DNA of 64,000 nt from Oleiphilus messinensis (GTDB lineage Bacteria; Pseudomonadota; Gammaproteobacteria; Pseudomonadales; Oleiphilaceae). Shown here piece by piece: positions 477 to 32,999 of the stretch. The notes beneath the pieces were generated by a model. The model made no database searches. It was given only the letters and a program-made list of their open reading frames with translations, and was not told where the DNA came from. The stretch spans positions 5,953,276 through 6,017,275 of the forward strand of contig NZ_CP021425.1 in the NCBI RefSeq assembly GCF_002162375.1, in the 5' to 3' direction. The position numbers and the translations under genes were made by a program. Position 1 is the first letter of the stretch, and each line of letters opens with the position of its first letter.

Positions 477-1571
477 ATGCTTGTCATTTTTGGCCATGCA
501 GTGATGGGTCACAGAGGTATCCCGATGAGTACGGAACAGCAGACACGTAATCGCTTGGTACGCTACCCGGCGTTGTTTTCCCGCACCTATTTGGCCGTTC
601 TCGCGTCATGGGGCGTCAATATCGAGGACTTTCTGAGTGCGTCGGATCTCCCGGCGGATACGGCGACTCGCAGCCTGGGGCTGACTCAGGAAGAATACCA
701 ACGCCTGCTGGATGCCGTTCACCAGCAATTTGCCGACCGGGGACCGGGTCTGGAAATGGGCTGGCAGTTACCGCCCACAGCCTTTGGCAGCCTCGGGCAG
801 GCCACGCTATCCAGCGCAACCTTTGGTGCGGCACTGGCAATATGTGAACGGTACTGGAACCTGTTTGGCATGGGCATGGCCTGCAACCTGAACATTGCGC
901 CGGAGCTGAGCCATATTGAAATCATGGCTTTGCCGGAGATACCCCATCGACACCATCACATGGTACTGGAATCAACGTTGACCAGTGTTTACCGGGGCTG
1001 CGTGGCCTTGCTGCCCGAAGTACAGGGCCAAACCATCACCGAATTCACCTTCGCCGAGCCGGTTTATGCCGGGAAAGCACGGCACTATCTGGGCACGGTC
1101 AGATACGCTCAATCCGGCTGCCGAATTTCCTTTCCGACAGCCTTGCTTGATCAGCCATTGATGATGGCAAACGCCTTCGCCTTGCAAACGGCATTGCTGC
1201 AATGTGAACAGGATCAGCAGCTGAATCAACACCCTGGCTTTGCCGGACGCATCCGTAAAGAACTGGTGCTCACACCTGAGGGCTACCCCAGCTTCGATCA
1301 ACTTGCAGACAAGCTGCATATGAGCCCGAGAACCCTGCGTCGCTATTTGCAGAATGAAGGGGCCAGTTTTCTGAAGTTATTAAACGATGCCCGGAAACGG
1401 GATGCCCAGAACCTGCTGGAAAGACCCGAATTGGCCATTCAAGACGTGGCCCAGCGGCTGGGCTACAATGACCCGGCCAACTTCACCCGCGCCTTTCGCC
1501 TCTGGCTCGGCCTGACGCCAAGCCAGTACCGCGAGCAAAAAAATAGCCCCCTGAGTATAAAACTCAAGTAA
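477..1571 (+). CDS. AraC/XylS-family transcriptional regulator
   Basis: 364-aa ORF; C-terminal double HTH (LADKLHMSPRTLRRYL...DVAQRLGYNDPANFTRAFRLWLGLTPSQYR) typical of AraC family; start may be a downstream Met (MSTEQQ). Confidence 0.85.
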   Translation: MLVIFGHAVMGHRGIPMSTEQQTRNRLVRYPALFSRTYLAVLASWGVNIEDFLSASDLPADTATRSLGLTQEEYQRLLDAVHQQFADRGPGLEMGWQLPPTAFGSLGQATLSSATFGAALAICERYWNLFGMGMACNLNIAPELSHIEIMALPEIPHRHHHMVLESTLTSVYRGCVALLPEVQGQTITEFTFAEPVYAGKARHYLGTVRYAQSGCRISFPTALLDQPLMMANAFALQTALLQCEQDQQLNQHPGFAGRIRKELVLTPEGYPSFDQLADKLHMSPRTLRRYLQNEGASFLKLLNDARKRDAQNLLERPELAIQDVAQRLGYNDPANFTRAFRLWLGLTPSQYREQKNSPLSIKLK

Positions 1572-3465
1572 TTGAGGCCGCAGAATTGTCTGCACCGAGC
1601 CATGCCGTGTGAATACAATCCCGCCCCTGGTGCTTGGAATGGTAGAGCTCGGTATCCGCTTTTTCCAGATACGCCTGTGTGGGGGTATCTCCTTGGGGTA
1701 TGCCGACACAACAGCCAATACTGACCGTAAGATTTACCGGCCCGCCCCGTGTGTTGATCGCCGTATCGGAAATGGCACGTCTGATGCGTTCGGCAACATC
1801 GCAGGCCCGTTTCGAGTCCGGCTCAAGCAGCACCACACAAAACTCCTCGCCACCGTAACGGGCCACCAGATCTGTTTCCCGCACAACCGTGCTGATCCGC
1901 AGGGCGACTTCCTGCAGACAGTCATCCCCGACCAGATGCCCCTGCTCGTCGTTAATGGTTTTGAAATGGTCAATATCAATGAGAAACACCGCCATCACAC
2001 GGCTATAGCGCACGGCCCGGGCAATTTCCCGACTCATGAAATGCTCCAGATAGCGCCGGTTGCCAAGCTGGGTTAACTGATCCGTATCACTCAGTGTTTG
2101 CAGCTTCTCGTTCGCCAGCTGCAACTCCCGCGTGCGGTCTGCCACCCGGGTTTCCAGCTCCAGCGTCGCCAGGCGCTGGATTTCCAGGGCCCGCTGCTGG
2201 GCGCGCAAGCGGAGTGCCCGCTCATTGGCTATCCGCTCCGCCAGGGCAAAGGACAGCAGGATCACCTCCAGTAAAATGCCAATCTGAATCGCAGAGTTGG
2301 TAAACCGGTTACTGGGGAGAAAACCGTATTTGCTCAATCCCAAAAGCAGTACACCACAGGCAAGAATACCCCACGACAATGTGTACCAGCGGGCTGCCGG
2401 GATTTTCCGATACCAGGCCACGACCCCGAGAAAAATGGCCCAGGCACTGACCGCAACAGAGAACACCACCACCCACTGAATCAGCTGCGCATAGTCAATC
2501 AGTAATGACAAGACAACCAATACGGCACTGACGGCAATGGCAATCGACTGCAACCGGTTCACCCGGTGACTCAGAAAGCGCACCACAAAGCGGGCTGAAA
2601 AGGCCATCCCAAAAAACAGCGTAAGCGTGAGCACAAACAAGAGTATCCGGTCATTCCAGAGCTGCTCCTCCGGCCACAGGTACTGATAGGCCCACCCGCC
2701 AATACCGGCACTGAACAGCGCCATGCAAATCACGTAACCCACATAAAACAAATACACCACATCTCTCAGGCCGAGAAACAGCAACAGGTTATACACCGCG
2801 ATGATGATCAAGGCACCGAAAAAGCCGCCCTGAAACCAGCTATTTCGTGCATCATCCTCAAAGAACGCTAACGGTTGCCAGAATGAAATCGGCACCTGGA
2901 TCGAGCTACTGGAGTGCACCCGGATCAGAAGTTGTACTTGCGCCTTTTCTGGCAGGAGGAAGGGCACAACAAAATTGCGATTTTCGACATTACGCTCGGC
3001 GAAGGGGTACTTATCCCCCAGCTGCCATTGATTGCGCACCTGGCCATCCACTACCTCGTAGATCTGAATGTCATCCAAAACCGGATAAGCAATCTGCAAT
3101 AACCAATCCGTTACCGGCCCGGCGTTATAGACCTGAAACCGAATCCACCACGCCGAGTCCGAATAGCCTTTGTTGACCACGTTGTCGGTATGAATTTGCC
3201 AGGGAATAGAGTACTGGGTCAGTTCCGATATTGTTAATTCGCCGGATGCATCTTCATACACTTCGACCTGTTGACCCACCTCAACACGCTTGAGCTCTGC
3301 ATTTAACAGAACAGCGGCAACGCTCTTACCCGCAACGCCTGCCAATATAAAGCCGAAACTCAGGTTGAAAATAATCCACAGCCAGGGTGCAGGCCTGCAT
3401 GCTTGACGGGAATTGAGCGTTTTACTGTTTGAATTGGTCAAGATCATCTCGGAAAACCAGATCAT
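1564..3465 (-). CDS. 7TMR-DISM sensor diguanylate cyclase (GGDEF)
   Basis: Periplasmic N-domain, about 7 TM helices, coiled coil, then GGDEF domain with RYGGEEF and DxLTGL motifs; ORF extends to 3636 but the signal-peptide-like start MIWFSEM at 3465 is more likely. Confidence 0.8.
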   Translation of the reverse strand: MIWFSEMILTNSNSKTLNSRQACRPAPWLWIIFNLSFGFILAGVAGKSVAAVLLNAELKRVEVGQQVEVYEDASGELTISELTQYSIPWQIHTDNVVNKGYSDSAWWIRFQVYNAGPVTDWLLQIAYPVLDDIQIYEVVDGQVRNQWQLGDKYPFAERNVENRNFVVPFLLPEKAQVQLLIRVHSSSSIQVPISFWQPLAFFEDDARNSWFQGGFFGALIIIAVYNLLLFLGLRDVVYLFYVGYVICMALFSAGIGGWAYQYLWPEEQLWNDRILLFVLTLTLFFGMAFSARFVVRFLSHRVNRLQSIAIAVSAVLVVLSLLIDYAQLIQWVVVFSVAVSAWAIFLGVVAWYRKIPAARWYTLSWGILACGVLLLGLSKYGFLPSNRFTNSAIQIGILLEVILLSFALAERIANERALRLRAQQRALEIQRLATLELETRVADRTRELQLANEKLQTLSDTDQLTQLGNRRYLEHFMSREIARAVRYSRVMAVFLIDIDHFKTINDEQGHLVGDDCLQEVALRISTVVRETDLVARYGGEEFCVVLLEPDSKRACDVAERIRRAISDTAINTRGGPVNLTVSIGCCVGIPQGDTPTQAYLEKADTELYHSKHQGRDCIHTAWLGADNSAASIT

Positions 3466-3879
3466 GCTCTGGGATGGGTAAAAAAACGCTTGTAAATAAC
3501 AAGCGCAAAGGCAAGAAAACACTCTGGATGGGATCACCCAAAGCAAGCGCGGAATCCCTTCCAAAAGGCTAACTGGAAGTACTGCCAAAACAAGCCTTCC
3601 GGAGCCTATTAAGCTATTTCTGGAACAAATAGTCATTGTTTAAACAGGAGCTGGCGTTGTGATTTTCGGAATAACATTGAATCTTGCTAGCCAGTGCACG
3701 AGACATTGTTTAATCGGAAGACCTGTTTACCCGGCAGATCTGTTTACCCGACAAACCCGCTCCGGCTGATCTACGCAGATCCGGTTTTCTTATCTACACT
3801 TTAAAGAATGGAAGTGATGCTGCCTTTAACGGGAGCGTGATACCATTAAGGTGACACCGGCATCAGAAAGAAGAATTAC

Positions 3880-4602
3880 GTGAAATATCAGAGCAGGCCC
3901 ATGACCACGCTATTCAATAAAGAAGACCGCATACTCAAACAGTATCGGGCTATTATCGAAACCACCGAGCATGAAGGGCATCCTCTGGTTCATGATTTGA
4001 CCGCGTTGCTAAGTCACTATGAAGAACTCTTGAGCAAGTTTGACCGGCTGACAAAAGTGAGTGATAAACAGCAAATATCACTCCATGAAATGGCGCGGGT
4101 TGATGGCCTGACCGGGTTGAATAACCGGAAATATCTGGAAGATTTTTTGAAATTCGAATGGAAGCGCGCATCGGATCTCGATGTGCCCATGGCCATGATC
4201 ATGGTCGATATCGACTACTTCAAGTTATATAACGATACTTACGGCCACCAGGCTGGGGATCGGTGCCTGAAACAAGTTGGCGAAGTGCTGGCGCAAACGG
4301 TTAAACGCTCATCGGACTTTGTTGCGCGCTATGGCGGCGAGGAATTCACCATTGTATTAACCGACTGTCGCCACCACTATGCGGTAGATCTGGCAGAAAA
4401 GATCCAGCGCGCCATCAGCACCGCAGAAATTCGCCATGCCGGTTCGAAGGTCAGTGAATATGTCACGCTGAGTATGGGCATTGCAGTCTATCAACCGGGC
4501 AAGGGCTCATCACCCTCAGCGCTGTTGAGCGCAGCCGATGAAGCACTCTACCGGGCCAAGGAAAGCGGGCGAAACCGGTTTCATCTGGGGCGCATCGACT
4601 AA
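3880..4602 (+). CDS. GGDEF diguanylate cyclase, SiaD-like (short coiled N-region plus GGDEF)
   Basis: 240 aa; DGLTGLNNRKY, RYGGEEF, intact I-site-like RxxD; small size and neighbourhood (SiaC/SiaB-like genes) fit SiaD. Confidence 0.75.
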   Translation: MKYQSRPMTTLFNKEDRILKQYRAIIETTEHEGHPLVHDLTALLSHYEELLSKFDRLTKVSDKQQISLHEMARVDGLTGLNNRKYLEDFLKFEWKRASDLDVPMAMIMVDIDYFKLYNDTYGHQAGDRCLKQVGEVLAQTVKRSSDFVARYGGEEFTIVLTDCRHHYAVDLAEKIQRAISTAEIRHAGSKVSEYVTLSMGIAVYQPGKGSSPSALLSAADEALYRAKESGRNRFHLGRID

Positions 4603-4617
4603 CCAGGACGCGGTATT

Positions 4618-5001
4618 CTAATCTGTTACCACCAGCTCGAAGGTGGCCTTGCGAACATCTTCGCGGAATTCTTCGCCAATTTCAGCCATGTAATCATCGT
4701 CTTCCGGATAAACCCACTTGATCACCACCCGGTTACCGGCACTTGCGGCTTCATCCATCAATTCCAGCAACTCCATCAGAATTCGTGCGGTGCTACTGTT
4801 GAAGTAGACAAACTCCAGCACCAATTCAATATCCGATGTGGATTGGGTTAACAGATGCGCTTGCAGCTTATCAACGGGCTCACGATAAAATTCCGTCACA
4901 TTCTCGGGATAGGACTCGCCCGAGATTCGGAAAACGTTATTTCCGAAGTCAAAATCAATTTCAGGTGTCCGGTCTGAACCCCTGATTTTTATCTGATCCA
5001 T
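4618..5001 (-). CDS. DUF1987 protein, SiaC-like phosphoprotein
   Basis: 127 aa; sequence MDQIKIRGSDRTPEIDFDF...ELVLEFVYFNSSTARILMELL typical of DUF1987/SiaC family; adjacent to SiaB-like gene. Confidence 0.65.
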   Translation of the reverse strand: MDQIKIRGSDRTPEIDFDFGNNVFRISGESYPENVTEFYREPVDKLQAHLLTQSTSDIELVLEFVYFNSSTARILMELLELMDEAASAGNRVVIKWVYPEDDDYMAEIGEEFREDVRKATFELVVTD

Positions 5002-5063
5002 ATCGTTTCCTTAGCTCGACGAATCCGTGCCCAAACAGGCACCATACACTTTGCGGAACCGCA

Positions 5064-5609
5064 TTATATATAAACCTTCAAATTATAAAATGCGCGCTTT
5101 TCGTCCAGCTCCACAAACCCGAAACTGAAATCCGATTTTGCACGCAGCGCAATCTCGATCAAGCCAACCCCCGCGCCTTTACTGCCATCCGGAATCGCCC
5201 CGTGGAGTCGTGACCGGTATTGGGCTTTCAGCTCGGGTCGATCCAGAGCCTGAATATCCTGCAATGCGGCGTCGATGCGCGCGACATCCGATATCGCAAC
5301 CGGATTTCCGCAATCGATATAAAACCGGTCACCCTCTTCCCCCATCGCGATCACACCACGGCCGAACTCAGTGCCATCATCGAGGGTACACCGCTCGAAG
5401 GAGTAATTCATAATATTCTGAATCTGTTCCACAAACAGCGCAAAGGCGGTTTGCCGGACTTTTTTATCCGCGTGGGCGAAAATGGCCGGTTTTTTCAACG
5501 CCTCCCCGACACTTAGCAACATTTGTTCGGTGATATAGCCGCTATAATAAAAATGCACACCGAGGTTCTGCATTTTCTGGTTAAGCGAATGGAGCGATAT
5601 AGACGACAT
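5064..5609 (-). CDS. SiaB-like serine/threonine kinase (RsbW/GHKL-like)
   Basis: Start MSSISLHS at 5609 with GGAGA RBS gives 181 aa; G-rich GSKGAGVGLIEIALR resembles GHKL G2 box; 4-gene context with DUF1987 and PP2C. Confidence 0.55.
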   Translation of the reverse strand: MSSISLHSLNQKMQNLGVHFYYSGYITEQMLLSVGEALKKPAIFAHADKKVRQTAFALFVEQIQNIMNYSFERCTLDDGTEFGRGVIAMGEEGDRFYIDCGNPVAISDVARIDAALQDIQALDRPELKAQYRSRLHGAIPDGSKGAGVGLIEIALRAKSDFSFGFVELDEKRAFYNLKVYI

Positions 5610-5740
5610 TCGTTCTCCGCCAGGGGATGGGTTAATACGATTGTTGAGATCGTTTTCAGCGCGAAAAAACCCCGGAACATTACCACAAATGCCTGAAGTT
5701 TTACCATACTTTACGCTATTGAGAGATTCGCAACCGATAA

Positions 5741-8536
5741 GTGATCCAGATAATGAAACAACCTGTCCATTTGGCAACAGTATGGCTACTCCTGCTACTT
5801 TTCTCCAGCTTTGGCCACACCACACCACCGCTGCAATTTGAGCACCTTACAACAGCCCATGGTTTGTCCAGCAATCTGGTCACCACGACCCTTCAAGACG
5901 CCCAAGGATTCCTTTGGGTGGGTACGGAAAACGGCTTGAACCGTTTCGACGGCTACGAGTTTCAAATTCACCGTCGCAACGCCGCCGCTTCAGAGACGTT
6001 GAATAGCAACCATATCACTCAACTTTTCCTGGATCAGTCCGGTCAACTCTGGGTCGGAACCGCTCGGGGTCTGAACCGGTATAACCGGTCACAAAACCGG
6101 TTTTCCACCATTCCGGCGTATCGCGATACAACCCCGGACTCGACGGTCGCCTTGAGCATCACCAGCCTGGCAGAATCTCAGGAACGGCTCTTTGTTGGGT
6201 CATCTCAGGGGCTGTTCCAGTTCAATCCCGACAAGCAGCAACTGGCACCCGTTTCTGCTCCCGAGCACATCGCCCCTGCACTGCTCGATTCCGAAGTCAG
6301 TGCGCTGTTGTTCGATAGCGATGGCTATTTGTGGGTGGGTACCCATGAGGGTTTACACCAATGGAACCCGGTGGAACAAACCCTGAAGACCTACAGGCAC
6401 GATGAGCAGGACGACGAACAAACAGTAGGTAAAAAGACAATAATCGATAATACCATTCAGGCATTGTATGAAGACCGAAAAGGTCAAATCTGGATCGGCA
6501 TAGATGGTGGCCTGTCCCGCCTGAATCCGGAGACAGGTGTGATCCGTAACTTCTACCATGGTGAGGACGGACACAGCCCGGAACTGGTCGGGGACGAGGT
6601 GACGAGTATTCTGGAAGATGCAAACGGTAATATCTGGATTGCAACAACAGAAGGCTTGACCCGCTACAACCCGGCGGACGAAACCTTCACTGCACTCATC
6701 CATGAACCGCAACTGGCGGACTCGCTCGCCCACAGCAAAACCCGCTCCCTGACCATCGATCGTTCGGGCATCCTCTGGGTTGGCACCCAGGGCGGTGGAA
6801 TCAGCCGCCTGAACCTTCAGCCCAAGGCATTCTACCGCGAACAACATCACCCGGAGCTGGAAGCGTCATTAGGTTACGACTCGGTTTTATCCTTTCATGA
6901 AGATCATGCCGGACGCATTTGGGTCGGCATGGAGGACGAGGGGTTCAACCGCTTTGATCCTCGCACCGGCACTTTTGAGCGTTTTGAGTATGAGGCTGAG
7001 GATTTTACGCTGGAAGAAACCACCGAGGGTATTTTTTATATCGACTCCGGTGGTATTCACAAAGATCGAGTGCGATCCATTCAATCGGACCAACGGGGAA
7101 ATCTGTGGATGGGCACCAGCGAAGGGTTGGAATACTTTGACGTTGAAAATATTCGCTTTCGCCACTTTCACCCCAAAGCCGGTCGGCCACATAGTCTCAG
7201 CCATGAAAATATTGGTGTTTTGCTACTCACGTCCGAAGATACATTGTGGATTGGGACGCAAGAGGGCGGTCTGAACAAGTTTAACCCTGAAACCTACGAA
7301 AACGAGATTTTTCGCTACCGGGAAAATGACCCGAACACACTGGGCAGCGACCGGATCACCGCACTCCTGCAAGATCAACAGGGTACGCTCTGGATTGGTA
7401 CAGAAGGCGGAGGTCTTAACCGCTTTGATGCCAAACAGGGTAACTTCCAACGCTTTGCCTTGCCGTTGAAAAATAATCAAGCTGCAGCGAGTAGCAATTC
7501 CATCTGGACAATTTACCAGGCAGAAGATCACCGCCTGTGGGTGGGCACCGATGAGGGGTTATACCAATTCAGTCCGGATTCCGGCACGTTCACCCCCTCA
7601 CCGCTCACGCTGAATGGCGAAGCAAACCGGGTGCTGGGTATTGTCGAGGATGATCACAGCAATCTCTGGTTAAGCAAGGAGAACGGCATTACCAAGTTCA
7701 CCCCCAGCTCCGGTGCGGTGCAGAATTTCAATGCGCGCAACGGCTTGCCCACTGACCAGTTTTTGCCCGGGGCGTACTATCGGAGCAAGGCGGGTGACAT
7801 CTATCTGGGTTCCAATCAAGGCATGATCCACTTCAAACCCCACGAGATTACCACTAACCAACACGTGCCGGATGTTGTCCTGACCAAGCTGGAAATTCTG
7901 AACAATGCGGTTACCCCTGCTAGCGACGACAGCCCATTGCAGGTTGATATCACACAGGCAGACAGACTCTCCCTCTCTTATCAGGATAAAGCCATCACCC
8001 TGACGTTTTCCGCCCTGGATTTTGCCAATCCGGAAAACAACCAATACGCCTACAAGCTTGAAGGTTTCGACCCTGACTGGAATTTCATCGGGCATCGACG
8101 GGTTGTGAGCTACACCAGCCTGCCGGGAGGGAATTACACATTCAAAGTCCGGGGCTCCAACAATGATCAGGTCTGGAATGAAGAAGGCATTAACCTGCCG
8201 ATATTTGTCGCCCCGCCCCCCTGGCTGACTTGGTGGGCCTACACCTTGTACGGTTTAACACTCATCGCGATCATCGCGGGTATTGCCCGCTACAGAACGC
8301 TGAAAATTGAACGGCAGTTAGTGGAGCAGGAAAAAGCGAACCGGATACTGGAGCACAAAGTTGCAGACCGCACCAAAGAACTAAACGTCAAGAACGAGCA
8401 ATTGTTCCGTTCCAATCAGAATATTTTGAGCAGTATTCGCTATGCCCAGAAAATCCAGCATTCCCTGCTACCCAACCAGTCCATGGTGCAACAGCTGTTT
8501 GGCGACTGTTTTATTGTTTGGGAACCGTTTTCATAA
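5741..8536 (+). CDS. SiaA-like sensor, N-terminal 931 aa: signal peptide, beta-propeller two-component-regulator repeats, Y_Y_Y domain, TM helix, coiled coil; truncated at entry to the PP2C domain by IS insertion
   Basis: Many repeats of the xWxGTxxGLxxxD Reg_prop motif, Y_Y_Y-like region ([35 protein letters not shown]), [20 protein letters not shown], then [16 protein letters not shown] typical of the first PP2C motif; ORF ends 3 codons after WEP. Confidence 0.8.
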
Positions 8537-8575
8537 ACCTGCTTAAACCTACTCAAGGTTTAAACGAGCCTATCC

Positions 8576-10231
8576 CTACAGCGCAGGGTGCGCGGAAAGC
8601 AGGGTTACGCTTTCCTGAATCAAGTCGGGACTCATGCCCGGTCTACCATCAAGGCGAGCCTCGACGGAGTAACTAACCCGATTCACACGACGAAAGTGAC
8701 GCCAGCCACTCAGAAAATCTAATGATTTTTCGAGTGGTTGGTACCAACGCTGAAGTTTGTTGTAATACTGATAATCCCCGAGCGCCATCCTTACAGGCGG
8801 ATGCTCGGTCTTAACGGTACCCTTCGCGTTAATACCAATGAGTTGTTTTGGCGGCTTTTCTTTAAAGCCATAATGCCGACGACCAATCACTAACGCGGCC
8901 GCGTGGTGATCTGAAAAACCGTGTCGATCGCGATACTTCATCCGCCCCAATAATGAGGTATAAGCCGGATTGACGTGATATAGGCGTATGCCGCGTTTAA
9001 TGCTTTGCGTTTCAATCAAGTCCTTGATCTTACCGTAAGCAAAGGCATTCAACATGCGGGCATACTGAGGATGATCCTGCTTTTGGTATTGCCGTTTCTT
9101 TTGCTGAAAATCCAGCTTTTCGATCACCACCGCTTTACCTTGCTGTGCGGCAAAGTCCATCAGGTCTCGTACGGCATCCCCAATAATAGCCGCTCGTTGA
9201 GCATCATTCTTATAGTGCAAAGGTAAGTCAAACGTTCGGTGTTGCAGTGGGTTACCGTTCCGATCCAGCTCGACGACCGCTAAGTGATCCGGGTTGACAT
9301 CCACACCAATGACACCTTGATCAGCATCGATCCACTCTGCTTGCGCTGTTGGTCCTGCCACTTCCACGCTAACGAGTAACCGCCAACCTTTTTTGTCTCG
9401 CTTAAATCGAAAACTCAGGGGTTGCCCTTTGATTGATTTATCGAGTTTTTTAACCTGATTCTGCCAGACGGCTTGGGCAATAGCCGCCTTACCATGCTTG
9501 AATTTCAGGCAATCAATGTTAATGGTCGTGCCGAACGTAGCGCGTAATTGATGGGGTACCAGGAGTTTTAGCTGGTAAGCATCATCTTGCTCACTGGGCG
9601 ATAGCTGGGCATTTTGACAGCCCCAGGATTCATCATGAGAACCCACCAATAGAAATTCGCGGTGTCGTGCTTCGTGCCAGCGTTGTTTCCAGCCTTCAAT
9701 GGCCGAACCCGTTTCTAACGCTTGACGCTCTTTCAGCAGCTTTCGACCGCCGAAACAAATGGGGGTTTTATTTGCCTGTTTTTCGGCCACCAAGGCGGCC
9801 TGCTTTTGCTGCCAACGATGCAGTTTCACTTCCTTCTGCCGTAGCGTGTTACGAAGTTGTTTTGCCTGTTGCGGGCAGCCTTTCTCTGCGACATGATCAC
9901 AGCGCTTCTTTAATTTGTTGAGCGTTTTCTCCAGCTGTTTGATTTTAACGTCCAGCGTCACCAATCGGTTGTTTCGATTGGTTTGGTAAGACTGGATTAA
10001 ACCTTTAATGCTTTGCCGGACGCCTTGAAACACCCGATAGCTGAACGGCATCCCCATTTCATGCATAAACTGGGTACGACTCAATTGCTGGGCTTTAGGC
10101 TTTTGTAAGTTAGCAAACCAACGAAACTTCACTTGATTCCACAGCTCGGCATAGTGGCACAATGCCGCATCCTGCTCATGAATCAAATTAAGCCGGGTTT
10201 CAAAGGTGAGTGTTTTCGTTAGCGTATCCAC
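8576..10231 (-). CDS. tnpB: TnpB (IS605/IS607 OrfB; RuvC-like RNA-guided nuclease family), 551 aa
   Basis: OrfB N-region, RuvC-like core, hallmark GIRLYHVNPAYTSLLG motif and C-terminal zinc-finger region. Confidence 0.85.
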   Translation of the reverse strand: MDTLTKTLTFETRLNLIHEQDAALCHYAELWNQVKFRWFANLQKPKAQQLSRTQFMHEMGMPFSYRVFQGVRQSIKGLIQSYQTNRNNRLVTLDVKIKQLEKTLNKLKKRCDHVAEKGCPQQAKQLRNTLRQKEVKLHRWQQKQAALVAEKQANKTPICFGGRKLLKERQALETGSAIEGWKQRWHEARHREFLLVGSHDESWGCQNAQLSPSEQDDAYQLKLLVPHQLRATFGTTINIDCLKFKHGKAAIAQAVWQNQVKKLDKSIKGQPLSFRFKRDKKGWRLLVSVEVAGPTAQAEWIDADQGVIGVDVNPDHLAVVELDRNGNPLQHRTFDLPLHYKNDAQRAAIIGDAVRDLMDFAAQQGKAVVIEKLDFQQKKRQYQKQDHPQYARMLNAFAYGKIKDLIETQSIKRGIRLYHVNPAYTSLLGRMKYRDRHGFSDHHAAALVIGRRHYGFKEKPPKQLIGINAKGTVKTEHPPVRMALGDYQYYNKLQRWYQPLEKSLDFLSGWRHFRRVNRVSYSVEARLDGRPGMSPDLIQESVTLLSAHPAL

Positions 10232-10827
10232 TAGGCGACGGCTCGTTGATTTTTACGACTACGTGAACCATGCAATCGCGCACTGAAGACCGTCATTAAC
10301 GCTAACACATCATGGCAAAGTTGCTGTTCAACGTTTTCTTCAACTTCCTCAAGAATGACAACCTCCGTACCGTAAAACTGGCAAAGCGCAAATAACAATT
10401 CAGCCCCAAATCGGAGTAAGCGATCTTTATGAACGATAACCAGTCGTTTTACCTTACGCTGACAAATCAACTTAATTAATCGCTTTAATCCCCGTTTTTT
10501 ATAGTTTAATCCTGAGCCAAGATCATCAATGGTTTCGACGGCTTCATAGCCAGCCTCTCTGGCATGCTTTTGCAAGCGAGCAATTTGCGTTTGCAAATCT
10601 TTTTTCTGATCATGAGAAGAGACGCGTGCATAACAGATTGTTCTGCGTTGCTCATTAGCAGTCGACTGACCGCAAAAGGCTAAAAGTTTATCAAGCGCGT
10701 AACGACGATGGCCACCAGGCGTACGGAAATCTGAGAAAAATCGTGATTCTTTTTCCCAGCGACGAAGGGTGGAAACGGCCACACCCAGAAGAAAAGCGGC
10801 AGCGCCTATCGATAGAAATTCAGCCAT
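10231..10827 (-). CDS. tnpA: IS607-type TnpA serine recombinase with N-terminal MerR-like HTH
   Basis: MAEFLSIGAAAFLLGVAVSTLRRWEKE (HTH) then RTICYARVSSHDQKKDLQTQ (catalytic Ser region), resolvase fold; GGAGGTG RBS 6 nt before ATG at 10827. Confidence 0.8.
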   Translation of the reverse strand: MAEFLSIGAAAFLLGVAVSTLRRWEKESRFFSDFRTPGGHRRYALDKLLAFCGQSTANEQRRTICYARVSSHDQKKDLQTQIARLQKHAREAGYEAVETIDDLGSGLNYKKRGLKRLIKLICQRKVKRLVIVHKDRLLRFGAELLFALCQFYGTEVVILEEVEENVEQQLCHDVLALMTVFSARLHGSRSRKNQRAVA

Positions 10828-10915
10828 GATCATCACCTCCATCCATGAGAAAACAATACTGTACAAGCTACTGTATATGAGTAGGTTTAGTCAAGTATTT
10901 CGTTAACTGTTAAAG

Positions 10916-11566
10916 CCCCGGGATATTGTGGGTGGCGATATCTACTACATCGACAAACTGGACAACAAAGTCATTGTGGCCGTAATAGACTGTACCGGTC
11001 ATGGTGTGCCGGGTGCGTTTATGACCATGCTGGCGTCATCCGGCTTGCGCCGAATTACCGTTGACGAGCACTGTCATGATCCCGCTGAGATTCTCGCTAA
11101 ACTGAACCGGATTGTGAAAAAGTCGCTGCAACAAGATACGGATCACGCCAGTTCCGACGATGGCATGGACGCGGCGGTGTGTGTCATTGATGAAGCAGAA
11201 AAAACCGTTAAATTTGCCGGGGCCAATTTACCCCTGACCTATATTCACGATGGCGAGATACACAGCATCAAGGGGGACAGGGAAAGTCTCGGCTACCGCC
11301 GCTCCGACGTTGAACACGACTTCAATAACCATGAAGTCAAAGCCCGGAAAGGCACCGTGTTTTATCTGTATACCGATGGCATAACCGATCAGTTGGGCGG
11401 CGAAAAAAGAAGAATGTACGGGAATCGACGTTTACGGGAGACCTTGCTCAAACACCATAATCACAACTCTGCAAAACAGAAAGAAAGCGTTATTGTTGAG
11501 TTTGAGCAATACCGTTCCGATAACGAAGTGCAGGATGACATCACCCTGATCGGTTTCAAGATGTAG
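10916..11566 (+). pseudogene. 3' fragment of the interrupted siaA-like gene: PP2C (SpoIIE-type) phosphatase domain
   Basis: In-frame KPRDIVGGDIYYID...AVIDCTGHGVPGAFMTM...YLYTDGITDQ...DDITLIGFKM are the conserved PP2C/SpoIIE motifs; no credible own start other than GTG 10928; continues the reading frame logic of 5741..8536. Confidence 0.75.
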
Positions 11567-11667
11567 AGCCTAATCCGGATAAGATCAACATTCGTCGATG
11601 ACGAATGTTGATCTCCTGTTGTTAGACTTTTAACAAGTTTGAGCCTGTCATCAATAACCACTGGCCA

Positions 11668-13077
11668 TTAGTTCTCACATCCCTCTGACGAGGCTGTTTT
11701 CGAAACATCCGCCGCATCCAGCCCGGTTGTAATCGTCGCTGCAAACGAACTTAAAAATTGGGTATTCAGGGTTGCAATACTCAACCCCGACAACTGAAGA
11801 CTCGCCGCGCCATCGGCAAATACGAGCTCAACCGGTTGATTTAACCCCAGAAACGACAGTGTTCCGGCCTCGGTACTGGTGATCTGGATACGGGTACCCT
11901 GAACTGAAAACTGGTAATCAGCCAACGCACCCGGCAGTTCAATACGCTCCACATTGGCATCCACCGTAATCGTGGGGTTACAGGAGACCAATAAGGTTTC
12001 CTGTTCCGCGTTACCATAAACCATTGTATCGGCCTGGCTGGTATAAAGATTACCGGCCCCTAAAAATGCCACGGACTCCGTCGCACCGGGTGTCGATTGT
12101 CCATCCGTGAACCGTTGCAATATGCCAGCGGTGTTGATGGTCCAGACATCGCCCGCTTCGGTATCCAGCGCCAGGCCACTGAAGGCCACATTCGTTACCG
12201 GTAACGCAATTTCCTGCACCAGTGACCCAGTCAGGGTCAGTTCCAGCATCGCCGCTTCGGCACTGCTGAGTACATATAAATTACCGTTGCTGCCCACCTC
12301 CAGGTCACCGGATACCACGTCGAAATCAGTGGCCACAGAAGCAAGCGCGATGCGGTTCAATATACTCCCGTCGGACGCGCTGATTTCCGCAATCACATTG
12401 GCATCGCTCGACACCGCTTCGTTATTTTGCAGCAGAAAAAACGAGCCCCGCTCTGGATGGTAAGCCCCACCGACCACAAAACCCTCGCCAAACGAGGTGG
12501 TCTGGCGTGAAACTTGGTTACCGGTCACCGGGTCAAATCCGTACATTATCGTAATGCCGCCTTCCCCTTCGAATACCAGTATTGATCCGGCGTCGATCTC
12601 CGCCCGACCCAACTGCAAGGCTTCAGGGGCAACACTGATATCCAAATGGCTTGAAACACTACTGCTCGGTAATTCAATACTGGACAGCACAGCCCCTTCC
12701 GGAGTCACCTGAATCAGTTGATCATTCTCATGGTCCTGCAGCCAGAGCGTGTTTGTCATCTCCGCATAAGCTACCCCGTATGCGCTTTGTGCCTCTGTCG
12801 CCAGGGTCTTGACCAGGTTCAAGGTGCTCTCTGCTGCCGCATCATGGCTGATCGAGATTCGCAGGTTATCAACCCGATTATCAATCAGGACGGCAGCATT
12901 ACCGGAATGCCGCCACCCGGTCACATAACCGAATTGCATTTCAGCACCGGAAAAATCCGGATGGAAATTTGCATTCATTTCCGCCGTTTCAAGGTCGATC
13001 ACCAGGCTGAAATCCGATTCCGTTAAACTCTGCATTTTCGCACGGTGCCAGGCATTTTCCTCAACGGGGGTGATCAT
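11668..13077 (-). CDS. hypothetical protein, probably secreted beta-propeller-like
   Basis: 469-aa ORF, Ser/Gly/Thr rich repeats; overlaps upstream ORF by ATGA. Confidence 0.45.
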   Translation of the reverse strand: MITPVEENAWHRAKMQSLTESDFSLVIDLETAEMNANFHPDFSGAEMQFGYVTGWRHSGNAAVLIDNRVDNLRISISHDAAAESTLNLVKTLATEAQSAYGVAYAEMTNTLWLQDHENDQLIQVTPEGAVLSSIELPSSSVSSHLDISVAPEALQLGRAEIDAGSILVFEGEGGITIMYGFDPVTGNQVSRQTTSFGEGFVVGGAYHPERGSFFLLQNNEAVSSDANVIAEISASDGSILNRIALASVATDFDVVSGDLEVGSNGNLYVLSSAEAAMLELTLTGSLVQEIALPVTNVAFSGLALDTEAGDVWTINTAGILQRFTDGQSTPGATESVAFLGAGNLYTSQADTMVYGNAEQETLLVSCNPTITVDANVERIELPGALADYQFSVQGTRIQITSTEAGTLSFLGLNQPVELVFADGAASLQLSGLSIATLNTQFLSSFAATITTGLDAADVSKTASSEGCEN

Positions 13078-13475
13078 ATGGCGATACTGGTAGTAGTTAC
13101 CCGCCTGCTGAATGAGGAGGTGCGCCCCCAGGACCCCAGCGTACCGCCCTCGACCGCGACCCAGCGATCCATGGACGCGCTAATGGTGTTGATGTTGCCC
13201 TGCGTGGCCGGATCCCACGAAAAATGGGAGTTGATAAAATAGTTTCTCGAGCTGTGATTCGGGTTATTGGCCGAGACTAACGTCATGTGGCCGATGGACG
13301 TCCCCGGATTCCCGGGGGAACTGTTCGACACGATTACCGTGGTGTCGCCACCATTGGAATGGCTTGCCACAACATAATCATCAAGATCAAAATCCCGATC
13401 AAGAAAAACAGAGCTGGCCTGGGTACTGCCAACCATTCCCACTAAACAAAGCGCAAAATACTGATTCTTTTTCAT
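13074..13475 (-). CDS. hypothetical secreted protein (signal peptide); possibly N-terminal part of the downstream ORF
   Basis: MKKNQYFALCLVGMVGSTQA signal peptide; 4-nt overlap with 11668..13077. Confidence 0.4.
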   Translation of the reverse strand: MKKNQYFALCLVGMVGSTQASSVFLDRDFDLDDYVVASHSNGGDTTVIVSNSSPGNPGTSIGHMTLVSANNPNHSSRNYFINSHFSWDPATQGNINTISASMDRWVAVEGGTLGSWGRTSSFSRRVTTTSIAI

Positions 13476-32579: not shown

Positions 32580-32925
32580 GGCGTTACTCCTTGATTACAC
32601 GAAGCTCAATCATTGCTTCTATTTCAAATAAAACGGGTGAGGGGTAGCAGGGTCAACCGACATGCTTGAACGCCCTCTGATGATCCTCCCGATCTACTGC
32701 TTGGATCAACTTGCGGGACAGTTCCGCAGGGGCTCTACAACTCCCCCATTTGAAACACATTCCGTTATGCCAGGCGTAGCCTGATACGCTGCTCACCCGC
32801 GTTGGTACTACTGGCCGGACACGCAACCAACAACTTTGGTGCCCGGAATTCATACCGCTTTTGGGGCAAAGCCCCGTTCTCGTTAATGAGTCTAGGGAGT
32901 CGAACCCTAACCTTTCGGTTTACCG

Positions 32926-32999
32926 TGGCTTGTACAGGAGTTGAACCTGTGACCTATCAGTTATGAGCTGACTGCTCTATCCAACTGAGCTAACAAGCA
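32926..32999 (-). tRNA. tRNA-Met (anticodon CAU; elongator-like), acceptor 5' base irregular
   Basis: Reverse complement reads GCTTGTTAGCTCAGTTGGATAGAGCAGTCAGCTCATAACTGATAGGTCACAGGTTCAACTCCTGTACAAGCCA: D-arm GCTC/GAGC, anticodon loop CTCATAA, T-arm ACAGG-TTCAACT-CCTGT; the 5'-terminal acceptor position mismatches. Confidence 0.6.

Follow-up and report, generated by a model that had tools for sequence, protein, structure and literature searches.

A Probable SiaABCD-Type Partner-Switching Module with a Propeller Sensor, Interrupted by an IS607-Family Element in Oleiphilus messinensis

A 64,000-nt stretch of the genome of Oleiphilus messinensis (GCF_002162375.1, contig NZ_CP021425.1, positions 5,953,276 to 6,017,275 of the forward strand; hereafter the window, to which all positions refer) carries four genes resembling siaA, siaB, siaC and siaD. 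With a probability of roughly three in four we read them as a SiaABCD-type partner-switching module that controls a diguanylate cyclase and whose siaA-like gene is disrupted here by an insertion sequence (IS). The feature extends from 3880 to 11566, the IS included. Gene identities were obtained from the open reading frame (ORF) listing and from hidden Markov model scans against Pfam and NCBIfam, complemented for single proteins by sequence matches to the PDB. An initial annotation had described positions 3880 to 8536 as a SiaABCD-like module of inverted gene organization with a large propeller sensor. The Sia-type partner switch and its sensor input, of the type found in hybrid two-component systems (HTCS), were retained in our analysis, but with the siaA-like gene interrupted by an IS607-family element the pathway is most likely non-functional in this genome.

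Results and Discussion

The siaA-like gene lies in two pieces. Its 5' fragment (5753..8526, plus strand) encodes, according to Pfam, PDB and SiaA-model matches, a signal or anchor segment, 14 Reg_prop blades, a Y_Y_Y domain, a transmembrane (TM) helix, a coiled coil and the first approximately 60 residues of a PP2C phosphatase domain. The mechanical ORF spans 5741..8536 on the same strand, with the start placed at 5753 in an independent annotation; it runs three codons into the IS before it stops at 8536. The assignment of 5741..8536 as a complete SiaA-like gene had to be abandoned, as the phosphatase domain breaks off at the IS: the last 62 residues (868–929) match positions 384–445 of the 658-position SiaA model NF038263 with 42 bits. 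The catalytic core is found on the other side of the element, 2.4 kb past the end given in the initial annotation, in a 3' fragment (10918..11566, plus strand; PP2C/SpoIIE, PF07228, E 1.8e-30), which matches positions 450–657 of the same model with 173 bits, the full-length equivalog cut-off being 700. Its mechanical ORF starts with GTG (10928..11566, 212 aa) and is open to its natural stop. The PP2C domain of Pseudomonas aeruginosa SiaA (6k4e, E 7.9e-35) is the sole PDB match of this fragment, the alignment beginning at chain position 92, and all Asp and Gly residues invariant in the family are kept. An exact-sequence look-up of the fragment returned nothing on record.

Joining 8526 to 10918 restores an in-frame protein of 1140 aa counted from the Met at 5753. 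Across the joint, the sequence ..FIVWEP followed directly by RDIVGGDIYY.. fits the family consensus FxLxxPxDIVSGDFYW without insertion or deletion. The reconstructed protein is collinear with two intact orthologues, P0002 and P0003, of which it covers 99%. A single gene, broken by the IS, accounts for both the “sensor” ORF and the “SpoIIE” ORF downstream.

The sensor part is well defined. Reg_prop (PF07494, E 4.7e-60) and Y_Y_Y (PF07495, E 5.9e-19) are recognized with high significance, and the periplasmic domain, at about residues 28–825, matches that of BT4663 (4a2l, E 7.6e-102) as well as 3v9f and 3ott, which bears out the periplasmic Reg_prop and Y_Y_Y input of about 700 aa originally proposed. 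Twelve canonical and two degenerate blade motifs were counted, consistent with two seven-bladed propellers. Hydrophobic peaks are located at residues 9–27 (signal or anchor) and 831–849 (TM helix), and a coiled coil of about 50 residues connects the latter to the PP2C domain; the linker gave no Pfam match, HAMP included, at E ≤ 0.01. Compared with the full SiaA model only positions 384–657 are matched. Positions 1–383, which we take to hold a small periplasmic domain and HAMP, have no counterpart in the locus, where the input is a double propeller plus Y_Y_Y of approximately 790 aa.

The interrupting element is an IS607-family insertion sequence of about 2.39 kb (8527..10919, minus strand), defined by its junctions, by tnpA and tnpB and by GG at both ends. 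tnpA (10231..10827, minus strand) encodes an IS607-type serine transposase with a MerR-like helix-turn-helix (HTH) and a resolvase domain (NF033518 transpos_IS607, 198 bits, cut-off 110; PF00239, PF00376). The ATG at 10827, preceded by a GGAGG ribosome-binding site, is taken as its start, the mechanical ORF beginning at 10866. A long and divergent gene, probably tnpB, follows (8576..10231, minus strand, 551 aa), which scores 98.3 bits against NF040570 guided_TnpB (cut-off 100) and 38.5 bits against TIGR01766 (cut-off 32); its product had no Pfam match at E < 0.01, and an exact-sequence look-up found nothing on record. The junctions read ..GAACC/G.. and ..CC/CCGGG.. (slash at the junction), and on the element strand CCCGG-GG-CTTTAAC.. 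and ..ATGAAAAC-GG-TTCCC. The target reconstructed on the element strand is CCCGG-GG-TTCCC; insertion took place at a GGGG run and excision is scarless and in frame. The empty-site 28-mer across the rejoined gene reads TTGTTTGGGAACCCCGGGATATTGTGGG. At the IS ends we found neither target duplication nor terminal inverted repeats. IS607 is reported to target GG without duplication (PMC6188088), and the junctions fit this published behavior.

With IS607 of Helicobacter pylori and with IS1535 the element shares a serine transposase that begins with a MerR-type HTH, insertion at GG, and the lack of duplication and of terminal inverted repeats; the gene behind the transposase gene is a probable tnpB. 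The element differs from the family in the unusual length of this tnpB (551 aa), which stays just under the NCBIfam TnpB cut-off. A 12-bp sub-terminal motif, TAAACCTACTCA, at 8544..8555 is mirrored near the opposite end by its exact reverse complement at 10878..10889, each copy being unique within the window. The 3' end of tnpB together with the right end of the IS (8527..8760, minus strand) is structured and is a candidate omega-RNA scaffold: the fold of 8505..8760 on the minus strand, including 22 nt of the flanking gene, reaches −91.8 kcal/mol with z = −4.9, and none of 200 shuffles was as good. A search of the IS and both junctions against Rfam gave no match to a known omega-RNA family. 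The structure is as would be expected of such a scaffold, and by analogy the guide would come from the flanking siaA-like sequence, with 8526 to 8508 as the predicted flank, and would target the uninterrupted allele. A rescue of the gene by IStron-type splicing was considered and rejected, as the Rfam search revealed no group I intron and the element lies antisense to the siaA-like gene in any case. No other copy of the IS is present in the window. In a plasmid collection no close DNA relative was found, the only match being 186 bp at 69% identity to a Microcystis IS607 transposase.

The same insertion occurs in a second assembly. Contig JAKSBC010000610.1 (locus L005) of the metagenome-assembled genome (MAG) GCA_022361325.1 (“Pseudomonadales bacterium”) is approximately 98% identical to the window and covers siaB, the sensor and 164 bp of the IS without a break, the IS being joined at the identical nucleotide. 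In a word-indexed search of a collection of 5.8 billion protein clusters, the only near-identical protein was a truncated form of 927 aa, and no uninterrupted protein exceeded 57% identity.

The siaC-like gene (4618..5001, minus strand) encodes a phosphoprotein of the DUF1987 family (PF09345, E 6e-38), whose best PDB matches are the P. aeruginosa SiaC structures 6kko, 6kkp and 7e6g (E 2e-18). With 91.6 bits against the equivalog NF038265 (cut-off 150) it is a member of the SiaC family, a relationship that falls short of orthology. In P. aeruginosa SiaC the loop N67-T68-S69 holds the phospho-acceptor and contacts the SiaD stalk (PMC8457831). This loop aligns to N68-S69-S70 here, which makes Ser69 the predicted phospho-acceptor. 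Adjoining it on the same strand, the siaB-like gene (5064..5609, minus strand, 181 aa) encodes a protein kinase (NF038262 SiaB_fam_kinase, 153 bits, cut-off 85; PF19788 DUF6272, E 4.9e-34). Its only PDB match is P. aeruginosa SiaB (6kko_A, E 1e-13), and it reaches 76.5 bits against the equivalog NF038264 (cut-off 225). A longer siaB-like ORF reaching to 5828 was dismissed as an upstream over-extension, the orthologues measuring 180–190 aa. The initial annotation had made its reading depend on the GHKL/SiaB similarity of 5064..5609 and on the DUF1987 identity of 4618..5001, and both were recovered in these scans.

The siaD-like gene (3880..4602, plus strand) encodes a diguanylate cyclase of 240 aa in which a helical stalk of about 70 aa precedes the GGDEF domain (PF00990, E 8.5e-55). 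Translation probably starts at the ATG at 3901, giving the 233 aa called in the MAG. Both the GGEEF active site and the RxxD I-site are preserved, and the protein scores 171.6 bits against NF038266 SiaD (equivalog cut-off 290). The N-terminus reads GHPL..(21 aa)..R-L-T-K-V-S-D-K-Q-Q, and the stalk contains one putative motif of the type that binds SiaC in P. aeruginosa SiaD (R56..V60-S61-D62-K63-Q64-Q65). Among three orthologues that are otherwise 53–54% identical this motif, (F/L)(D/E)R(L/I/V)TKVSDKQ(Q/H), is nearly invariant, with Q65 replaced by His in the orthologue of locus L006. It aligns to both SiaC-binding repeats of P. aeruginosa SiaD, ..RIARISDGFQ.. and ..KVARISDRYQ.., although weakly (domain E-values 22–31). 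The spacing from S to Q equals that of S82 and Q86 in P. aeruginosa SiaD, and, relative to the proximal P. aeruginosa motif, it is shifted by one heptad (7 residues) toward the GGDEF domain, with the helical register preserved. The stalk is therefore predicted from its sequence to offer one SiaC-binding site, compared with two in P. aeruginosa SiaD.

Taken together, the calls of GGDEF, SiaC/DUF1987, SiaB-like and Reg_prop/Y_Y_Y proteins in the initial annotation were confirmed by the ORF listing and the model scans, and so was the layout from the ORF positions: the siaD-like gene converges on the siaC-like gene, and the siaA-like gene diverges from the siaB-like gene. The divergent intergenic region between the latter two (5610..5752) presumably holds their promoters, judging from the sequence layout; in a promoter and terminator scan of 3400..11700 the sites were no more numerous than expected by chance. 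The stop codons of the convergent siaD-like and siaC-like genes are separated by 15 bp (window 4602..4618), and no terminator-like hairpin was detected in this gap. A terminator-like hairpin with a 15-bp stem and a weak T tail follows 16 nt past the siaA-like stop (11582..11614, plus strand).

To delimit the module, we inspected the loci, flanks included, of the two intact orthologues most similar to the reconstructed protein. Locus L006 contains P0002 (57% identical, 1120 aa) with GGDEF (plus), SiaC (minus), SiaB (minus) and SiaA-like (plus) genes in the same order as in the window. In locus L007, which contains P0003 (55% identical, 1136 aa), the GGDEF gene is co-directional with siaC and siaB, and siaA is divergent. 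Flanking genes are unrelated among the window, L006 and L007. As the four genes are kept despite unrelated flanks, the conserved unit is the siaA-, siaB-, siaC- and siaD-like genes. The inverted organization emphasized in the initial annotation does differ from the co-directional siaABCD operon, but it is not distinctive: the siaD orientation, convergent in L006 and co-directional in L007, is a variable detail of the module, and SiaBC modules at greater distance show yet other arrangements.

In P. aeruginosa, SiaA dephosphorylates SiaC at T68 and SiaB phosphorylates it; in its phosphorylated form SiaC is unable to bind SiaD. As long as SiaA does not act, SiaC is held phosphorylated by the kinase and SiaD remains off (PMC7278518). 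The signal that activates SiaA is described there as unknown (PMC7278518). Transferring by analogy the direction of signal flow, the phospho-site, the contact between SiaC and the stalk, the off phenotype and the nature of the ligand, the intact form of the present module may be pictured as follows. A membrane phosphatase, composed of an N-terminal signal or anchor, a periplasmic sensor, one TM helix, a coiled coil and a cytoplasmic PP2C domain, would sense a periplasmic ligand via the double seven-bladed Reg_prop propeller and Y_Y_Y, and would dephosphorylate the SiaC-like protein at Ser69. The unphosphorylated form would bind the single S-D-x-x-Q motif in the stalk of the GGDEF protein and switch on synthesis of cyclic di-GMP (c-di-GMP), a messenger in biofilm formation, and re-phosphorylation by the SiaB-like kinase would switch it off. 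Insertion of the IS607 element at the GGGG run separates sensor, TM helix, coiled coil and the first approximately 60 phosphatase residues from the catalytic core. Without a functional phosphatase, and if the P. aeruginosa logic applies, the SiaC-like protein most likely stays phosphorylated and the cyclase inactive.

Several observations weigh against this picture. All four proteins stay below the NCBIfam equivalog cut-offs set for SiaA, SiaB, SiaC and SiaD, which points to relatives at the paralogue level. The residue aligned to the SiaC phospho-acceptor is Ser instead of Thr, the stalk-motif alignment is by itself statistically weak, as its domain E-values of 22–31 indicate, and WspR is a closer relative of the siaD-like GGDEF domain than P. 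aeruginosa SiaD is. Furthermore, the 3' PP2C fragment keeps every catalytic motif and begins with a possible GTG start, and the SiaC-like protein might yet be dephosphorylated by this free fragment or by a different phosphatase of the genome.

Three competing explanations were weighed. Could the split gene still work, with the 212-aa PP2C fragment (10928..11566) translated from its GTG, on a transcript running out of the left end of the IS, as an unregulated soluble phosphatase that leaves the SiaC-like protein unphosphorylated and the cyclase constitutively on? The fragment starts exactly at the VGGD metal-binding motif with the family-invariant Asp and Gly residues in place, and its frame is open to the natural stop with the original hairpin behind it. 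It lacks, however, the N-terminal 60–90 residues of the fold, as the alignment to 6k4e from position 92 indicates, and SiaA-model positions 384–445 reside on the other fragment. Neither a recognizable Shine–Dalgarno sequence before 10928 nor an outward promoter at the left end of the IS was found, and tnpA is transcribed in the opposite direction, so that we regard this explanation as improbable. Equally to be weighed is the idea that the GGDEF gene is a mere neighbor and that SiaB, SiaC and the propeller phosphatase regulate another target, the locus not being a c-di-GMP module. SiaB-SiaC pairs do occur with other outputs, namely GAF-HD-GYP genes in loci L093–L095 and, in locus L017 from Bacteroidia, a 286-aa protein without Pfam match beside SiaB and SiaC and no GGDEF gene; the orientation of the GGDEF gene also changes between orthologous loci. 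Against this stands the presence of a stalk-GGDEF gene for approximately 235–240 aa directly beside siaC in all three orthologous loci with their unrelated flanks, and the motif in its stalk, nearly invariant among the orthologues, resembles the one by which P. aeruginosa SiaD binds SiaC. A mere neighborhood is hence unlikely in our judgment.

A chimeric join at the IS in assembly or binning, with the real siaA-like gene intact, is the third alternative. IS elements often break or mis-join short-read assemblies, and the related MAG is indeed fragmented in the insertion region. The independent MAG contig nevertheless enters the identical IS at the identical nucleotide, both junctions show the GG core expected for IS607, and the excision is exactly in frame. 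Moreover, the protein search described above yielded the truncated 927-aa form as sole near-identical match and no uninterrupted protein above 57% identity. We consider such an artefact highly improbable. A SiaABCD-type module with a genuinely interrupted siaA-like gene remains the reading that we prefer.

Comparison of the window with L005 provides hints on the age of the insertion. In 5247..8134 we counted 71 differences (approximately 2.5%), whereas none occurs in 8135..8691. This tract of 557 bp joins the terminal 393 bp of the gene fragment to the initial 164 bp of the IS, and elsewhere no run free of differences exceeds 237 bp. The pN/pS value (non-synonymous against synonymous differences) of the sensor fragment in this comparison is 0.094, with 0.09–0.12 for its neighbors. 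Taken together, the tract and the pN/pS value suggest that the two sequences diverged while the siaA-like gene was still whole, and that recombination or homing distributed a younger segment with the IS, with the proviso that local divergence varies from 0.8 to 2.5% and that the consensus sequence of a MAG may be a mosaic. Interpretation of the pN/pS value as a sign of a still functional truncated sensor is disfavored, since the identity tract suggests an insertion younger than the strain divergence, and the signal of purifying selection would then pre-date it. A more far-reaching proposal is that the insertion represents a scarless and potentially reversible knock-out allele, affecting a biofilm-signaling sensor, that moved between diverged strains. 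The 557-bp tract is the pattern expected from recombinational transfer or from homing into an intact siaA-like gene driven by TnpB and omega-RNA, and as excision by the serine recombinase leaves the GG target exactly as before, the module might regain its function, a reversal that TnpB would counteract. We regard this proposal as rather unlikely, and offer it as a tentative one.

P. aeruginosa SiaABCD (PA0172–PA0169) and the present locus have all four protein types in common, namely a membrane phosphatase of the PP2C type, a kinase of the SiaB family, a DUF1987 phosphoprotein and a short stalk-GGDEF cyclase. The N-(T/S)-S loop in the DUF1987 protein is shared and so, in a weak alignment, is the S-D-x-x-Q motif in the cyclase stalk, and for three of the four locus proteins (SiaC, SiaB and the PP2C core) the PDB matches are the P. 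aeruginosa Sia proteins themselves. In contrast to the co-directional siaA-B-C-D operon, siaA diverges here from siaB-siaC and siaD converges on siaC. The locus further differs by one stalk motif instead of two, Ser instead of Thr at the aligned phospho-site, a GGDEF domain nearer to WspR and the disruption of the siaA-like gene by IS607. With the Bacteroides HTCS sensors (BT4663, 4a2l/4a2m; 3v9f; 3ott/3va6) it shares a homologous periplasmic domain of 14 Reg_prop blades and Y_Y_Y followed by a single TM helix. There the output is a chain of histidine kinase, receiver and AraC DNA-binding domains, whereas the output of the locus is a PP2C phosphatase feeding a partner switch, and no polysaccharide-utilization locus adjoins the siaA-like gene.

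The architecture Reg_prop-Y_Y_Y-SpoIIE with about 1100 aa is common: dozens of the best 120 matches show it, in Bacteroidota, Acidobacteriota, Chloracidobacterium and others, and several sources already name such proteins “ligand-binding sensor domain/serine phosphatase RsbU”. These uncharacterized RsbU-type proteins (Bacteroidota, Acidobacteriota, Ignavibacteriota) have identical architecture and length, with 30–38% identity over the full length. Pairing with SiaB and SiaC is uncommon in the loci sampled. Among approximately 15 full-length examples from GTDB species representatives, examined with 6-kb flanks, SiaB and SiaC stood beside such a gene only in L017, and the next closest three metagenomic relatives (P0005, P0013, P0019) have neither SiaB nor SiaC nearby. 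Full-text searches within one literature library found no description of a Sia version with propeller input.

In L017 (5956..11187, Bacteroidia MAG) the genes for the Reg_prop-Y_Y_Y-PP2C protein, the 286-aa protein without Pfam match, the SiaB-like and the SiaC-like protein are all co-directional and no GGDEF gene is present; the 286-aa protein, whose gene lies in between, is a candidate for the output in its place. Outside the clade, the SiaC relatives of highest identity (54–58%), including that of Desulfamplus magnetovallimortis, are found in SiaB-SiaC-(GAF-HD-GYP)-(REC-SpoIIE) operons (L093 6416..13491; L094 6422..10862; L095 6347..10980). In common with the present locus these operons have a DUF6272 kinase next to SiaC and a PP2C phosphatase. 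They differ in the receiver-domain input of the phosphatase, in an HD-GYP phosphodiesterase as candidate output in place of a cyclase, and in the co-directional arrangement of all genes. In these operons a Sia-type switch may act on a phosphodiesterase for c-di-GMP. Near those of L094 and L095 a large gene for a cNMP-binding/Apyc1-like metallo-beta-lactamase protein is located. The protein P0004 (1157 aa) is 53% identical to the sensor part only and ends in HATPase domains in place of PP2C, so that elsewhere a sensor of this lineage is coupled to a histidine kinase. The SiaB/SiaC pair is therefore a portable core joined to varied inputs (HAMP-type, receiver and propeller phosphatases) and outputs (cyclase, phosphodiesterase and others).

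In the window, the module is adjoined by a second cyclase gene of the 7TMR-DISM type (DISMED2 and 7TM domains with GGDEF; 1564..3636, minus strand), and this in turn by a gene for an AraC-family regulator with an Arabinose_bd domain (477..1571, plus strand). Both had been named as neighbors before and were found in place. Their convergent 3' ends overlap by 8 bp, and the pair is present in the MAG. As members of the module they were ruled out, since neither occurs in the orthologous loci L006 and L007. Immediately past the siaA-like gene lie two overlapping ORFs without Pfam match at E ≤ 1e-5 (11668..13077, minus strand, 469 aa; 13074..13475, minus strand, 133 aa). The only Rfam or ARAGORN match in the window is a tRNA-Met (CAT) at 32925..32999 on the minus strand.

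The polysaccharide-sensing Sia pathway suggested in the initial annotation is most likely not functional here, the siaA-like gene being split by IS607. Among the neighbors up to 25 kb no glycan-utilization or exopolysaccharide genes were found; a polysaccharide context was rejected, these neighbors being genes for RND efflux, an OmpR/histidine-kinase pair, hydrolases and a lactonase. Polysaccharides may be the ligands, by analogy with the sensor family.

Conclusion

For the genome of Oleiphilus messinensis the result is a correction of the annotation: the siaA-like gene is split by an IS and the pathway is to be scored as disrupted. Both processes involved, the swapping of input domains and disruption by an IS, are ordinary ones. 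Together with the REC-PP2C/HD-GYP and the Bacteroidia variants, the locus shows the SiaB/SiaC core to be a portable cassette open to different inputs and outputs. A Sia-type phosphatase with a sensor of the HTCS family, for which ligand complexes have been solved, would be a more tractable system for asking how a periplasmic ligand controls a PP2C partner switch and whether extracellular glycans can drive c-di-GMP signaling via a Sia-type route. Such studies should turn to the intact orthologues in L006 and L007.

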